Shown: positions 4,963 through 59,415 of the stretch, piece after piece
How positions within the stretch are numbered: position 1 is the first letter of the stretch
Layout: each line of letters opens with the position of its first letter
DNA from: Octopus vulgaris
Lineage: Eukaryota
Length of the DNA stretch: 64,000 nt
Direction: 5' to 3'
Assembly: GCA_951406725.2 (NCBI GenBank)
Contig: OX597824.1
Coordinates: 58,714,001-58,778,000 of the forward strand
Position numbers and translations under genes: made by a program
Notes under the pieces: generated by a model
What the model was told of the DNA's origin: nothing
Seen by the model: only the letters and a program-made list of their open reading frames with translations
Databases searched by the model: none

Positions 4963-5185
4963 TGTTTCTTTATTACCCACAAATATATAGAGGGGACAAA
5001 CAAGGACAGACAAACGGATTAAGTCGATTACATCGACCCCAGTGCGTAACTGGTACTTAATTTATCGACCCCGAAAGGATGAAAGGCAAAGTCGACCTCG
5101 GCGGAATTTGAACTCAGAACGTAGCAGCAGACAAAATACGACTACGCATTTCGCCCGGCGTGCTAACGTTTCTGTCAGCTCGCCG
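4963..5185 (-). mobile_element. tRNA-derived SINE, family B
   Basis: Reverse complement of GGCGAGCTGGCAGAAACGTTAGCAC...GAGTTCAAATTCCGCCGAGGTCGACTTTGCCTTTCATCCTTTCGGGGTCGATAAATTAAGTACCAG; more degenerate minus copies near 23700-23895, 49140-49340 and 50915-51100. Confidence 0.9.
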
Positions 5186-5440
5186 ACTTGGTAAACAAGC
5201 TACTTACCACACAGTCACTCCTGCGCCTATGTATATATATATATATATATATATGTTCCATGTTTTTACATATTTGTGTACACTTATTCGTGTTATCATT
5301 ATTTTTTTTACGTATTTTTGTAATTTTATTTGTGTAATATCGTCCGGTTTTCCGTCCTTGTTTTGTATACATTCGAGGCTTTCTTCCAAGGAATCTAATG
5401 CGCTTGGCTTAAATTTTCCTTTATGGCTGGCCAGATCGGA

Positions 5441-5506
5441 GCAATCTCAAGATTAATCAGCCGAAATTGCGAGGATGATCCGGTTCTTGACTGAAGATTG
5501 AAGGCT
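5441..5506 (+). ncRNA. putative non-circularly permuted hammerhead ribozyme
   Basis: GCAAT-C^TCAAGA ttaatc AGCC-GAA-ATTGC ... TCTTGA-CTGAAGA-TTGAA-GGCT; stems I and III covary with the 58 kb copies. Confidence 0.75.
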
Positions 5507-5585
5507 TCGAATGTCCCGTCCGTGTTTTTAGTATCGTCTCCTAAATGTTTTACGTTCTTGTCCCAGTTTGTATTTTTTTACATTT

Positions 5586-5638
<53 letters not shown>

Positions 5639-6226
5639 TGACGTTCGTACCCTTTTGGGTCTTATACGCAAGTATATATTTCTTTAACACATGGTACGAC
5701 TCTACAACACTATCTCTCTCCATCCTCTCCTACATTTCTCTGCCTTTCACACTTTGCACTCCATTTTGATCTGTCTCTTTCTCTCTCTCTCTCTCTTCTC
5801 CTCCTCCTTTGTTCCTTGTTCCCCTTCTTTTTCTCGTCATCTGTCCCTCTTTCCTCTCTCTTCTCCTCACACGTGACTAGCCGACCTATTGCTGGCCTTT
5901 TCGTGGCCAGTAGCCGTCGCGGCAAGACACGTTTTTCTCTCTCTCGCCCTAAGGCATATTTCTAACGCCAGCTCAAAATTTATTCGTCCTGTCAAAAAGA
6001 CGCTTGTCTGTGACGTCCTGTTCTTGTTATTATTATTATCATTATTGTTTTTACGTAGTTTTGTACACTTATTCGTGTTATCATTATTTTTTTTTACGTA
6101 TTTTTGTAATTTTATTTGTGTAATATCGTCCGGTTTTCCGTCCTTGTTTTGTATACATTCGAGGCTTTCTTCCAAGGAATCTAATGCGCTTGGCTTAGAT
6201 TTTCCTTTGGGGCTGGCCAGATCGGA

Positions 6227-6292
6227 GCAATCTCAAGATTAATCAGCCGAAATTGCGAGGATGATCCGGTTCTTGACTGAAGATTGAAGGCT
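6227..6292 (+). ncRNA. putative non-circularly permuted hammerhead ribozyme (second copy)
   Basis: Identical to 5441-5506. Confidence 0.75.
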
Positions 6293-6371
6293 TCGAATGT
6301 CCCGTCCGTATTTTTAGTATCGTCTCCTAAATGTTTTACGTTCTTGTACTAGTTTGCATTTTTTTACATTT

Positions 6372-6428
<57 letters not shown>

Positions 6429-15504: not shown

Positions 15505-16208
15505 CTATAAAATTGGATTCAATCCAAAATCTGATTTTTCCCTGTAATATATATTCTTCATGGTCTCCTCGCACCATTCCCCTTCTTCTCTCTCTTCCTC
15601 TTGCTCCTCCTCCCCCATTCCCGTCGTCCATCTGCGACGTACTTCCGTCGTAACTGCTATCCCGTCCTTTCTCACCTGCCTTCTAAGGCCACTGGTCGAC
15701 ATCTTCCTCTCTCGTCGTCCACTATAATCCAGCGTTTGCAATACTTTTTTCGTCTGGCGTTAACAGCCCTTCTTATCTTGCTCTCCTTGTCCTGTCTCTC
15801 ACTGTTATATATTTATTTTTCCACTGTTTATATATATATTTTTTACTGTTTATATGTTTGTACTGTCGTTACCGTCTTGCTTTTTTACCCCTCTGCGACA
15901 AGATCTCAGAATTTTAATTGATTTGCTTTTCGCAGGAAGGAATTTTTCATTCGAAGTATACGTCTCGCTTTTATCCTTCGAAACGTTTAGTAGATGAAAC
16001 TTTAGCGACTGAAGAAGGGGATTTTTCGTTGTGCTTATTGTCCTGTATCTCCTTTTTTTGCTTGTCTTGTTCCTTGGTTTGTGTCTATGTTTTTCGTCTC
16101 TCTATGTGTTCGACGTCCTTTTGGTGTCCTGTACACATATATGCGTGTATATGTACATGTAGAGGTAGGTACGTACATATATGTTTATATATATGCATAT
16201 ATTTTATT

Positions 16209-16212
<4 letters not shown>
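15505..16212 (+). mobile_element. non-coding repeat carrying a permuted hammerhead
   Basis: Pyrimidine-rich 5' part, structured core, ends in (TA)n; architecture like family C. Confidence 0.55.
15945..16022 (+). ncRNA. putative non-circularly permuted hammerhead ribozyme
   Basis: TATACGT-C^TCGCT ttt ATCCTT-C-GAA-ACGTTTA ... AGCGA-CTGAAGA-A-GGGGAT; extra helix TTTCAT/ATGAAA. Confidence 0.75.
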
Positions 16213-31870: not shown

Positions 31871-32351
31871 TATAATTGATATAGGATAAATTTTTTTCGT
31901 GAAAAAAATTTTATCAATGGCCATCATATCAAAAAATGCCTTTAAAGGTAAAATTTATACATAATTTACAAGATAAGGGCAGAAGAAAAACTCTAATGCC
32001 AGATACGCCGAAACAAAAAATTGTCGATAACCATTAAATTTAAGCGTCTCGAAACAAAACGATAGAAATCTCTAAAAACTTCGTTTTTACCGTATTGGTC
32101 CAATTTCGGGGTTAATTCACAAGAAAGTTTCCCCTCTTCAGCGGCAAGTACGCGAGATATAAATGAAATACTTACTCATACCCATGGAAGAAGCAAACAC
32201 CAAGTCCCGAGCTACTTAAGTACCCCAAATATATCCAAAATAGAAAAATCGTCGGCGCACCTCGAGACACGTGTGATTCGAACTAGAAGCTTTCACAGAG
32301 TGATGGAATCCGGAAGTGAACACTAATCTATTTATAATTGATATAGGATAA
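31871..32351 (-). mobile_element. ~461-bp terminally redundant non-coding unit with hammerhead (retrozyme/pLTR-like)
   Basis: tataattgatataggataaa at 31871 and 32332. Confidence 0.65.
32089..32145 (-). ncRNA. type I hammerhead ribozyme
   Basis: GCCG-CTGAAGA-GGGG(19)CCCC-GAA-ATTGG-A-CCAAT-A^CGGT; intact core. Confidence 0.85.
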
Positions 32352-34659: not shown

Positions 34660-34740
34660 AGCTGATTCTCTCATCAGTTGGTTTCCGAGACGTCTTAGTG
34701 GTTTCACGTTATGTAAAACCAAGATCACCGATATCATCGG
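34660..34740 (-). ncRNA. putative non-circularly permuted hammerhead ribozyme (within repeat ~34570-35260)
   Basis: GTGAT-C^TTGGTTT ... GAA-ACCAC ... AAACCAA-CTGATGA-GAGAA; 7-bp stem I; stem II unresolved. Confidence 0.6.
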
Positions 34741-35479
34741 GAGCGCCAGAGCATAGAGCTACAGGAAAAAGCTGACGAACGTGTGTGAGGACAGGACAAA
34801 TAATATTGCGTATGCAATAAGAAATAATAACAAGATATAACACACGAGAAATATGCAATAGAAAACGCCTTACTGCGGTACAATAGGCTGGTGGGGTAAT
34901 TATACGTATACAGTAATAAAACAATACAATACAAAGAGACAAAGCCTTCTCGGCGATCAAGACAGACGTAGTGAGGTAGCGCAATGAAACCGAAAAAGTC
35001 CTTGACGGACAGAACACAAAACATATCAAGTTTGGTCAACAGTAGGGTGGAAAAAAAACGACGCGCTTTACCTGGACAACAGTTACGTGGTAGGAGATGG
35101 GAAGAGTGTGGGGTGGGGGACTAAGGAATGAGACAGAGAAAGAGAGAGGCAGAAGAGAGAAGGAAGGGAGAGAACAGGGCTCAAGGGAGGCAATTAAGGA
35201 GGGGAGGGAAAGATAAATGAGAGAGAAGAGGAAGAGAAGGAAGAGAGGTAGAAAGATAGATAGATAAATAGATAAATACAAACGCACACACACACAAACA
35301 TTATATACCGGTGAGAGGACAAATGAAAGACGGCGACACTGAATACAATTGGAAAGAGCTATATTTATGATTCAATAAAAGTTTGATTCAGCACAATGCA
35401 ACATAATGTTTCGTGGGCTCGTTAAAACAGACCTAGCTCTTCAACTTAGGTAACGAATTCGGTTATATCATATTATATG

Positions 35480-43379: not shown

Positions 43380-43995
43380 CACATTTCTTGGCAAACATTT
43401 TCTTTAATCTCTCTACTTTCCTTCGTTATCTCCTTTATACCTGTCCCCCCTCTCTCTCTCAGTCTCTTTCCCTCTCTCTCGCTCTCTAGTTCCTTTCCTA
43501 ATTCATCAATCCTCCTGTCCCCTACCTCTTTCTGTTCCTTCCACGTGACCGGTGTTCAGCCAAGCAAGATCTTTCTTGGCCTGGCCGCCACCCGTACAGC
43601 ACCTTATTTTCCTATCTCCTGACTCCTATGTTTTTCGCAAGGTTTTCACTCCACACGCCAGCTCAACTTGACTTGTCCTTATTAGTCAAAAGACACCTGT
43701 TGTTATTCTCGTGCTGTTTGTATTGTAATCGTGTAACATTTTCTCCGTCTTCTCGTTTTTCTGTCAGTGTTGTCGTACACGTTTGCTTGTTGTCTTCCAA
43801 AATTTATATGCTCTTAGCTTAGATTCTGAAGTGTCTTAAGTGTAACAGGCCGAAACTGTAATGATAATTGAACACTAGACTGATGAACAGAAGGCCACGA
43901 TGGATCAGTCCTGGTTTTTCCTGTCCGTCTTTGTATCGTCTATCTGTCCGTATGTTTTTATTGTCGTCCGTTACGTTCTTATTCCGTTTTTGGAT
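43380..43995 (+). mobile_element. non-coding repeat related to family C
   Basis: Shares cacgtgac, acgccagctcaa, gtcaaaagacacctgt and tgctcttagc blocks. Confidence 0.65.
43829..43896 (+). ncRNA. putative non-circularly permuted hammerhead ribozyme
   Basis: GT-C^TTAAGTGT aaca GGCC-GAA-AC ... ACACTAGA-CTGATGA-ACAGAA-GGCC; stem III eroded to 2 bp. Confidence 0.6.
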
Positions 43996-51000: not shown

Positions 51001-51128
51001 CGCTAACATCAGCGGAATTTGAACTCTGAGCGAGAAGAGTCAGAACAAATATTGCAACACACTTCGACGATCTAACAATTCTGCCAACTCGCCGCCTTTC
51101 TGACTTTAGTATAATGTCCACACCCGAA

Positions 51129-51520
51129 GGCGGCGAGCTGGCAGAAACGTTAGCACGCCGGGCGAAATGCATAGCCGCATTTCGTCTGCCGTTACATTCT
51201 GAGTTCAAATTCCACCGAGGTCGACTTTGCCTTCCATCCTTTTGGGGTCGATTAAATAAGTACCAGTTACGCACTGGGATCGATATAATCGACTTAATCT
51301 GTTTTTCTGTCCTTGTTTGTCCCCTCTATGTTTAGCCCCTTGTGGGCAATAAAGAAATAAGAATCATTAGCACGCCGGGGAAAATGCTTAGCGACATTTT
51401 GTCCGTCTTTACGTTGAGTTCAAATTCCGCCGATAAAATAACTACCAATTGAGCAGAGGTCGATGTAATTTTTTTCTAACTCCCTCCACCGAAATTGCTG
51501 GCCTTTTTTTCAAAAACTTG
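51129..51520 (+). mobile_element. SINE family B plus a partial tandem copy
   Basis: A-box TGGCAGAAACG, B-box GAGTTCAAATTCC; restarts at ~51361. Confidence 0.9.
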
Positions 51521-53113: not shown

Positions 53114-54140
53114 GGATCTTTTCCTTTTGAACAGCAGTTTTCAACACAATTTCTAGTTAACTAAACACTTTTAAACTTCGCATACTGGTAGAATGTGTTT
53201 ATAAAGCATCATTTTTTTCTTGGCTTTATTGAGAAAATTCTATATGTTGTAACATATTTCGACTTTAATTTCGAGCATTTCGGCAATTTTAACCAATCGC
53301 TGACCTCCATTTGGAGTGAAAACATTCCGTGCTGTATAAATATGTCCCTCGTTTAAGAAACAGATTGGGTTTATTTACATTTGCAAAGAAAAAAGATGCC
53401 CTTCCCCCACCCCTAACCCTAACCATTCCCCTAACCCTAACCCTAACCCTAACCATAACTCTAAACCTAACCCTAAAATAGATTGAAATGCAATAGATCG
53501 ATACTAGGGTTATAATTATGGGTGACAATTTCATACGACACCGCTACGGAAAATGGGATTTTTTTCTAGCGGTGTCAAATGAAATTGTCACCCATAATTA
53601 TAACCCTAGCATCGATCTATTGCATTTCAATCTATTTTAGGGTTAGGTTTAGAGCTATGGTTAGGGTTAGGGTTAGGGTTAGGGGTGGGGGAAGGGTACC
53701 TTTTTTTATTCGCAAATGTAAATAAACCCAATCTGTTTCTTAAACGAGGGACATATTCATACAGCACGGAATGTTGTTTACGTCAATGGAGATCAGCGAT
53801 TGGTTAAATTTGCCGAAATGCTCGAAATTAAAGTCGAAATATGTTACAATATATAGAATTTTCTCAATAAAGCCAAGAGAAAAAATGATGATACATAGAA
53901 TTTCCTTGTATGGGTTTGTGTGTATATATGTGTGTTTACGTTTATTTTACATGTGATTTTGAATCTTTATTCCATGGGTTCTTCTCTTCTAAAATTATGG
54001 AATCCCATAGTTCCATATAACTAAGCATGTTCAACATTTGCATCAAAGGCAATAAACACATTCTACCAATATACGAAGTTTAAAAGTGTTTAGTTAACTA
54101 GAAATTGTGTTGAAAACTGCCGTTCAAAAGGAAAATATCC
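53114..54140. mobile_element. fold-back derivative of a Merlin-like MITE (two arms in inverted orientation)
   Basis: Termini GGATCTTTTCC / GGAAAATATCC; 8-bp TSD ACTTCATT (53106-53113, 54141-54148); ~440-bp inverted arms with (CCCTAA)n/(TTAGGG)n. Confidence 0.88.
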
Positions 54141-56251: not shown

Positions 56252-56472
56252 AAAAATTAGAAATCATGGGTTATATAGATTTATGTATTTATTATAGGCT
56301 TACAACTGTTTCAGATATAGATTTTGATGCGGTAGCCCTTTAGCAATTAAACTGGCCATATCAGGTCCAAATATTCGGTGTTCTATGTTCAAACTGACCA
56401 AATTTAATCGTTCACACCTACTATAAGATGTTATTCTAAAAATAAATAATCATATCATTAAAATCTAATGAA

Positions 56473-56703
56473 GGCGGCGAGCTGGCAGAAACGTTAGCAC
56501 GCCGGGCGAAATGCGTAGCCGTATTTCGTCTGCCGTTACGTTCTGAGTTCAAATTCCGCCGAGATCGACTTTGCTTTTCATCCTTTCGGGGTCGATTAAA
56601 TAAGTACCAGTTATGCACTGGGGTCGATGTAATCGATTTAGTCCCTTTGTCTGTCCTTGTTTGTCCCCTCTATGTTTAGCCCCTTGTGGGCAATAAAGAA
56701 TTA
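56473..56703 (+). mobile_element. SINE family B, full length
   Basis: Near-identical to 51129-51360; a further degenerate copy at 61221-61430. Confidence 0.92.
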
Positions 56704-58019: not shown

Positions 58020-58084
58020 AGCTTTCAATCTTCAGTCGATAGCAGATCGTCTTTGCAGTTTCGGCGTGTTAATTTCGAGACTGC
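58020..58084 (-). ncRNA. putative non-circularly permuted hammerhead ribozyme
   Basis: GCAGT-C^TCGAAA ttaaca CGCC-GAA-ACTGC ... TCGA-CTGAAGA-TTGAA-AGCT. Confidence 0.65.
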
Positions 58085-58624
58085 TCTAATCTGACCGGCC
58101 CCAAGGAAATCTATGCTAAGAGCACTAGATTCTTTGGAAGAAAGCAAGCAAATGTATGCTAAAACAAGGACGAAAAAGAAAAAAAAATGGACAAAATTGT
58201 ACACAATTGCAAATACAAACAGCAGGACATTAACAACAGGTGTCTTTTAACTAAGGTCGAATTAAATTAAACTGGCGGTGGTGGAAGTGAAAGCCTTACG
58301 ACAGGAACATAGAACATGAAAGTCATAGGAAGAAATACGCGAGATGCTGCACGGATGGTAATCGAACCAAGAAAGAAAGATCAGGCTTGGTCGAAGGTCG
58401 GTTACGTGGAAGGAGAGGAGAGAGGTAGTGGATAGAGAGATTTAAGAATTAGGGAAGGATGAGAAAGAGAGAAAATAGGAAAGTTACAGACTGAAGTAAA
58501 GGAGGGAAAGTGATGAGAATGAAGGGAGTGCCAAGAAATGTGGGAGAGCGTGGGAGCGAGAAAAAGAAAAGTGGAACGAAGAAAGTGTGAAAGAGGCTAA
58601 ATGAAAGAGTAAGAGTCGTACAGA

Positions 58625-58844: not shown

Positions 58845-58910
58845 AGCTTTCAATCTTCAGTCGAGAAGCAGATCGCTTTTGCAGTTTCGGCGTGTTAATC
58901 TCGAGACTGC
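58845..58910 (-). ncRNA. putative non-circularly permuted hammerhead ribozyme
   Basis: GCAGT-C^TCGAGA ttaaca CGCC-GAA-ACTGC ... TCTCGA-CTGAAGA-TTGAA-AGCT. Confidence 0.72.
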
Positions 58911-58961
58911 TCTAATCTGGCCGGCCCCAAGGAAATATATGCTAAGAGCACTAGATTCTTT

Positions 58962-59415
58962 GGATCTTTTCGGTTTGAAAGGCAGTGTTTAACATAATTT
59001 CTAGGTAACTAAAAAATTTCAAACTTCGTATACTGGTAGAATGTGTTTATAAAACATCTTTTTCTCTTGGCTTTATTGAGAAAATTCTATAGTTTGTAAG
59101 ATATTTGTTGTTTTTTTCTTCAATTTCTGCAATTTCAATCATTCACTGACGTCCATTAAGGTAAACAACATTCTGTGCCGTATGAATATGTCCCTCTTTT
59201 AAGAAACAGATTGGGTTTATTTACATTTGTGAAGAAAAAAAGATACCCTTTCCTCCACCCCTAACCCTAATCCTAACCCTAACCTTAACTAATCCTAACT
59301 AACCCGAACCCTAAAATAGATTGAAATACAATAGATCGATACTAGGGTCATAATTATGGGTGACAATTTCATATGACACCGCTAGAAAAAACTGTCAATC
59401 GAACCGAAAAGATCC
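58962..59415. mobile_element. Merlin-like MITE carrying telomere-like repeats
   Basis: TIRs GGATCTTTTCGGTTTGA / TCGAACCGAAAAGATCC; 8-bp TSD GATTCTTT; empty site in the paralog at ~58128; degenerate (CCCTAA)n at 59258-59314. Confidence 0.9.

Follow-up and report, generated by a model that had tools for sequence, protein, structure and literature searches.

We consider it probable that a Naiad-derived non-coding repeat in the window (the whole 64-kb stretch of octopus DNA analysed here) carries, near its 3' end, a hammerhead-type fold whose strands follow the order IIa, cut site, GAAA, CUGANGA, with the core open between A9 and G10.1. Four helices covary, namely stem I, stem II formed with an upstream strand, stem III and a joining helix, and the permuted order is backed by compensatory change, not by drift. 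From its sequence, the fold is predicted to self-cleave after C5446 and C6232.

Both sites lie in a family A insertion (5261-6376, + strand), predicted to be a non-autonomous Penelope-like element or retrozyme. In this partial tandem a 5'-truncated copy is joined to a complete unit of 786 bp, segments 5261-5636 and 6046-6422 sharing 95% identity; the insertion has no ORF, includes a (CA)n(TA)n tract in its interior and is flanked by (TA)n. In its first ribozyme the 5' strand of stem II, whose first base is G10.1, occupies 5425-5430 and pairs with 5457-5462 through five Watson-Crick pairs and one G-U. Next, at 5431-5437, comes the 5' strand of the joining helix, which connects stem I with stem II; this strand makes six of seven pairs with 5477-5483. 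The cleavage block (5441-5452) is made of the stem III 5' strand, U16.1-C17 (AUC) and the stem I 5' strand, with the predicted cut between 5446 and 5447. It is followed by the GAAA block (5457-5470), which holds the stem II 3' strand, G12-A15.1 (5463-5466) and the stem III 3' strand, and by a last block (5477-5497) with the 3' strand of the joining helix (5477-5483), the stem I 3' strand (5485-5490) and CUGAAGA (5491-5497), all on the + strand. The second family A ribozyme (6211-6283, +) has an identical fold and a predicted cut at 6232/6233. A descriptor allowing all strand orders returned the copies at 5441 and 6227 in the order cut site, GAAA, CUGANGA, which is reversed relative to the circular order of hammerhead types I-III. 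A strict descriptor matched the window five times, against a mean of 0.01 (maximum 1) in 100 dinucleotide shuffles, while an Rfam scan of the window, hammerhead types I-III included, gave no match at the gathering score. A separate candidate of canonical type I order, also below the Rfam gathering score, lies at 32087-32147 (-), with a near-identical relative in loci L242/L262.

The window contains eight ribozyme copies from six families. A family B ribozyme with a GUC site (58854-58926, -) has a predicted cut after 58905 and two weakening substitutions in stem II; another copy of this family lies 825 bp away (58029-58100, -) and has a decayed stem I. Family D is represented at 15936-16015 (+), in a tandem unit of 832-839 bp with a predicted cut after 15964. 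A decayed family C copy (43830-43896, +) has lost its upstream stem II strand by deletion and has a broken stem III. Two copies belong to other families, one partly decayed (34671-34746, -) and one with a GUA-type site that keeps the four-strand fold (2567-2637, -). The layout of the family B pair and of family D is that of family A. The family B element is itself broken by a MITE-like insertion (58962-59415) that has 14-bp terminal inverted repeats, contains (CCCTAA)n and seems to be bounded by an 8-bp target duplication; tracts of a similar kind, (CCCTAA)n/(TTAGGG)n, occur at 53402-53697. The window also holds copies of an abundant SINE-like repeat (4987-5189, 51127-51329 and 56471-56673; 91-93% identical), which we take to be the tRNA-derived octopus SINE.

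The hammerhead core is complete in this fold, with CUGANGA, GAAA and an NUH site, stems I, II and III being in register. AUC sites such as those of family A are described, in the excerpts of the literature consulted, as active though rare among natural hammerheads. We searched the genome (2.8 Gb, 227 contigs) with a core-only pattern, defined by core letters and spacings with no pairing requirement, and obtained 5,104 matches versus 213 for the reversed control; this number is not a copy number, since some loci match twice and the family with AUC falls outside the pattern. One other repeat family (loci L328-L333; G000:C1, e.g. at 20295816) matches the pattern as GAAAC ... CTGATGA and is absent from the well-paired clusters. 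Three samples were used to assess pairing. The first consists of the first 30 pattern loci, chosen blind to pairing, of which 27 are distinct (three are duplicates). The second, alignment A1, gathers 71-72 natural copies related to family A (the A/B/C group), after omission of 7 of 77 candidate fragments (same-place duplicates or aberrant length) and addition of 2 window copies. The third is a lineage test on 12 family majorities, with exact permutation over seven lineages; the seed family M was excluded from it, its majority being that of family A, and the single-copy families H-K had been picked because stems I and III could be recognised in them by eye, a choice that biases the test for these stems and not for stem II or the joining helix.

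Across the 12 families, whose stems differ, the catalytic positions, the NUH site (GUC, GUA, GUU or AUC) and the G10.1-C11.1 pair are all kept, which is what selection on catalysis predicts. The claim that core nucleotides are invariant while linkers vary stands for the core and is half right for the linkers, two of which form a covarying helix. This conservation also bears on an alternative that we regard as unlikely, in which the fold derives from a hammerhead and cleaves poorly by itself, acting as a recognition or priming structure for a Penelope reverse transcriptase (RT) or needing help from a fourth helix, from dimerisation or from a protein. Such a reading would accommodate insertions that read through intact cut sites and 5' ends that do not fall clearly at the cut; the A9-G10.1 break has no tested precedent, and dimers are needed by some retrozyme hammerheads according to the sections consulted of PMC7229834. 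The retention of catalytic positions, NUH site and G10.1-C11.1 pair in families of divergent stems argues against it.

The main departure from the sequence-only reading concerns stem II, which had been drawn as AGCC/GGCT in family A and GGCC/GGCC near 43.8 kb, that is, with a strand downstream of CUGANGA. In A1 this pairing was found in 76.6% of cases versus 75.5% in shuffles (66 of 500 reach it), its covariation score was matched by 104 of 500 shuffles and its lineage p was 0.20-0.87, which is the level of chance; the 10.1-11.1 pair formed with the downstream strand was unpaired in 37 of 69 cells. Instead, the stem II strand that precedes GAAA has its partner 20-27 nt upstream of U16.1 and the cut site. 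In the first family A copy this partner strand (5425-5430) sits directly 5' of the segment that had been drawn, which started at 5431. Of the 12 family majorities, 11 form the upstream stem II with 5/5 Watson-Crick pairs and all 12 have G10.1-C11.1, and among the larger groups this stem takes four different sequences; family K, a single copy, is without an upstream partner. None of 500 shuffles reached its score in A1, two-sided changes occur at all six pairs, slid controls collapse, and the lineage permutation gives p=0.0002. Among the 27 unselected loci the upstream partner wins in 20 and loses in three.

These data also weigh on the possibility that the fold is a plain type-SGC hammerhead, with stem II formed with the strand after CUGANGA across an insertion of 4-6 nt. 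We had started from this reading and discarded it on the upstream-versus-downstream pairing, the shuffles and the lineage test, and now deem it very improbable. It would leave block C intact, as in the validated type-SGC (in the portions covered of PMC10085705), families A and C can make four Watson-Crick pairs downstream, and in these two families an alternative conformer is conceivable. Yet downstream covariation does not rise above shuffles or lineage permutation, five Watson-Crick pairs are formed upstream in 8 of 22 cluster representatives and downstream in 0 of 22, and in family A the upstream duplex is the more stable (-8.3 versus -5.0 kcal/mol). As for the individual examples, GGCC is indeed present at 43848-43851 and 43893-43896, in a decayed copy with a broken stem III and a deleted upstream strand, which makes it a poor illustration of stem II. 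The caveat that stem II is weak in the copies near 58 kb was right: both carry two substitutions that weaken it under either pairing model, the family B majority having six Watson-Crick pairs in the upstream stem II. The GGCT at 5503-5506 (+), unsupported as a stem II strand, may pair further upstream, in a possible stem IV. We considered such a stem IV as a helix closing the A9/G10.1 gap; it is 83.8% paired within the A/B/C group, where it is plausible, and was rejected as a general feature with a lineage p of 0.66-1.0.

Stems I and III fared as had been proposed. The letters cited for them are correct: stem III is GCAAT/ATTGC with an AUC site at 5441-5506 and 6227-6292 (+) and GCAGT/ACTGC with GUC in 58845-58910 (minus strand), and stem I is TCAAGA/TCTTGA in the two former copies and TCGAGA/TCTCGA in the latter. 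In A1, stems I and III together are 91.2% paired versus 81.0% in shuffles (0 of 500 reach it), with 96 two-sided cells versus 38.7, and slid controls drop to 20-36% paired. At least seven of eight pairs are formed in 23 of 27 unselected loci against 82 of 590 cross-family swaps, and in the lineage permutation stem I reaches p=0.0002 and stem III p<=0.0032. The joining helix pairs the strand after IIa with the strand before Ib (lineage p<=0.006); scored together with stem IV in A1 it was reached by 0 of 500 shuffles, in a test that under-counts family C because its joining helix is one column out of register. Hence, of the proposal that compensatory changes support the permuted fold, the part on stems I and III is upheld and the part on the drawn stem II is not, and the covariation across an alignment that had been suggested as a check shows correlated changes in stems I and III between families, not uncorrelated subfamily drift.

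The swaps first offered as examples are the weakest part of the case. The stem I swap (A-U versus G-C) coincides on both strands with a CpG, and among 34 family B copies 10 carry only half of it (A-C in eight, G-U in two); the stem III swap is a single event, confined to the family of the 5441 and 6227 copies. Changes within families are mostly one-sided (89 single versus 5 double in family B, 50 versus 1 in family C), so that pairwise comparison of individual copies is weak evidence. Compensation arises between families, that is, between master lineages, and inside families copies mainly decay on one side. That the paired changes are nothing but subfamily drift (CpG decay, shared ancestry) or chance complementarity in a repeat is scarcely credible, for although the CpG swap, the common half-changes and the one-sided changes within families speak for it, the pairing of four helices persists over seven lineages of different sequence, slid controls collapse, and Naiads of other phyla carry the same fold in the published consensi consulted.

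The anatomy of the insertions includes the traits of non-autonomous Naiads and Penelope-like elements (PLEs): partial tandems, a fixed 3' end, (TA)n flanks and 5' truncation. The 3' ends are fixed relative to the cut in 23 of 27 family A and 40 of 42 family D insertions. The 5' ends are scattered: among the top-scoring matches, which are no census, 0 of 22 family D ends lie within 5 nt of the cut, and in family A five ends, at four loci, fall near the cut among about 20 true truncations, at most a weak hint of a start there. At one locus (L432) two family A copies stand head to head on opposite strands, both starting no more than 5 nt from the predicted cut. Of 22 family D insertions, 10 carry two ribozymes. 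The best matches of this family are 100% identical in 28 of 40 cases, from which we conclude that family D has moved recently. Copies of this family (window 15560-16210; loci L061-L090 and L346-L375) look very young and form arrays of up to three units. Families A and D were also matched in assembled contigs of runs that we guess to be RNA, contigs that carry no information on ends, strand or level.

The short non-coding repeat probably descends, as a non-autonomous form, from Penelope-like retrotransposons of the Naiad kind. In 14 of 30 loci with a Naiad RT (20 of the 30 were extended) the motif lies 0.8-2.4 kb downstream on the same strand, the RTs being broken; four of the loci with a downstream fold pass the strict descriptor. 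A single locus (L313) unites the motif with remnants of an N-terminal GIY-YIG and of an RT; L308 shares its N-terminal GIY-YIG order, and Pfam matches of Naiad RT remnants to RVT_1 are weak. In a second Naiad lineage, about 36% identical, a similar tail is present in 7 of 20 extended loci. By eye, Naiad copies of this genome agree with the published Octopus consensi. Among the published Naiad consensi that we consulted in the supplement of PMC8557442, we recognised four helices by eye in Naiad_Obim, Naiad_Ovul, three Acropora, one Morbakka and one arthropod consensus, and in Naiad_Bfor (Beroe), where stem I has only 2 bp; stem II reads GGCUCC/GGAGCC in Acropora, and the hosts include octopus, corals, a jellyfish and a ctenophore. 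In the same set the fold was not seen by eye in two Darwinula consensi, two nematode consensi have the circular order by eye, Naiad_Esco shows no clear stem II, and Naiad_Adux and Naiad-1_Skow show no core.

The window families and the Naiads described in the parts consulted of Craig et al. 2021 (PMC8557442) are alike in targeting (TA)n, in inserting as partial tandems and in carrying the fold at the consensus 3' end, and differ in that Naiads have an ORF. The autonomous layout of N-terminal GIY-YIG and C-terminal RT was seen only as broken copies elsewhere, the window units having no ORF, and none of 140 matches (134 of 752 candidates scored) had an intact Naiad frame, the longest reaching 325 aa. 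Downstream of Naiad ORFs, and of ORFs with a C-terminal GIY-YIG, none of the tails of families A-D was found in register, even though family D is very young. Families A-D share with Naiads the fold only, no sequence link to the Naiad ORF or body having been found, and with no intact Naiad ORF at hand the helper is inferred. Elements with a C-terminal GIY-YIG were considered as partners and rejected, as by eye they carry minimal hammerhead variants of circular order and not the window fold. A Penelope-like element of this kind, present in many copies (L261:905-4587, L263:580-4281), has a 781-aa frame for RT and C-terminal GIY-YIG, preceded by an overlapping frame of 330-480 aa (a possible frameshift); it is apparently active, and its pLTR bears, by eye, a minimal hammerhead variant with a changed core.

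How could a core opened between A9 and G10.1 work? In the hammerhead structure A9 forms a pair with G12 and is stacked on G10.1-C11.1; if the chain is nicked on the A9 side, the strand facing it therefore stays unbroken. We suggest that the helix II stack would tolerate the nick, with C11.1-G12 continuous on the opposite strand and the joining helix docking stem I to stem II, as it does in type-SGC. Cleavage would turn a tandem transcript into monomers of roughly 0.8 kb, and both ends, held after the cut by three helices (II, the joining helix and III), would be favourably placed for ligation into a circle. A Penelope-type RT/GIY-YIG protein acting in trans would start at a fixed point of the RNA, copy it into (TA)n and could pass round its template more than once, giving insertions of 1.4-2 units as observed; multi-unit insertions with a fixed 3' end would fit copying from circular or from uncut multimeric RNA. 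Two observations speak against this scheme: the 5' ends show no clear enrichment where the RNA would be cut, and cleavage rates respond to single extra bases at A9/G10.1.

A broader proposal, towards which we lean with less assurance than towards the fold itself, is that this is a seventh natural wiring of the hammerhead and the missing ribozyme of Naiads from ctenophores to cephalopods, that three helices hold its ends together and that it drives a large family of circular-RNA retrozymes still moving in the octopus. If true, the A9-G10.1 link is dispensable for assembling the hammerhead core, a possibility that the current permutation scheme excludes, and this would be the first non-circularly permuted ribozyme found inside animal genomes, as far as we searched the literature. 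It would also bear on the open question of why Naiads appeared to be without the hammerhead of other PLEs, and would mean that standard descriptors and Rfam overlook thousands of candidate ribozymes in one genome. In the sections consulted of Craig et al. 2021 (PMC8557442), Naiads are reported to be without canonical hammerheads, some being flagged only as HHR_core or HHR_half_core, the latter for Naiad_Ovul. In the literature covered, mostly outside subscription journals, we found no description of a hammerhead opened between A9 and G10.1; term searches of texts from 2026 (a retrozyme preprint, an annotation of Octopus repeats and a ribozyme paper) gave no mention of the fold, and the parts consulted of Forgia 2023 (PMC10162972) hold no opened-core precedent.

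Among known elements, the closest in organisation are the non-LTR retrozymes (Cervera and de la Pena 2020, PMC7229834), which, in the sections consulted, are likewise non-coding tandem repeats with one hammerhead per unit, and whose animal members have been proposed to derive from PLEs (PMC7229834; Li et al. bioRxiv 10.64898/2026.07.22.740005, in part). According to the same sources they carry type I hammerheads of circular order and give RNAs of about 170-400 nt, whereas the octopus units, known here from DNA, measure about 790-835 bp and bear the opened, reversed fold and no type I hammerhead per unit.

Among known ribozymes, the nearest are type-SGC (HRIMA-1 and variants) and type-CSG, described in Eckert 2023 (PMC10085705), whose relevant passages build the six hammerhead permutations from three unbreakable blocks and assume at most 1-2 inserted nucleotides at A9/G10.1, a place where single extra bases change the cleavage rate (PMC1636495 and PMC3705267, in excerpt). 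The octopus fold has the same core nucleotides and shares with type-SGC the reversed order of cut site, GAAA and CUGANGA, a short linker that separates the strands of stems I and II, and a connecting helix between the far ends of these stems, which in Eckert's description is required in type-SGC. It departs from it in block C, intact in type-SGC and here divided: the stem II strand precedes the cut site, on its 5' side, instead of following CUGANGA by 0-2 nt, CUGANGA comes last, and A9 and G10.1 are not adjacent, which places the fold outside the six permutations as described. Type-SGC is reported there from metatranscriptomes only, with none in genomes of known organisms, while the octopus fold occurs at thousands of places in an animal genome. 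With the SGC order and a broken block C, it would work much as a type-SGC does and yet fails membership in that type. We propose that the fold is a novel form within an established ribozyme class; its conservation as a structure is well supported, and it is predicted to be catalytic.
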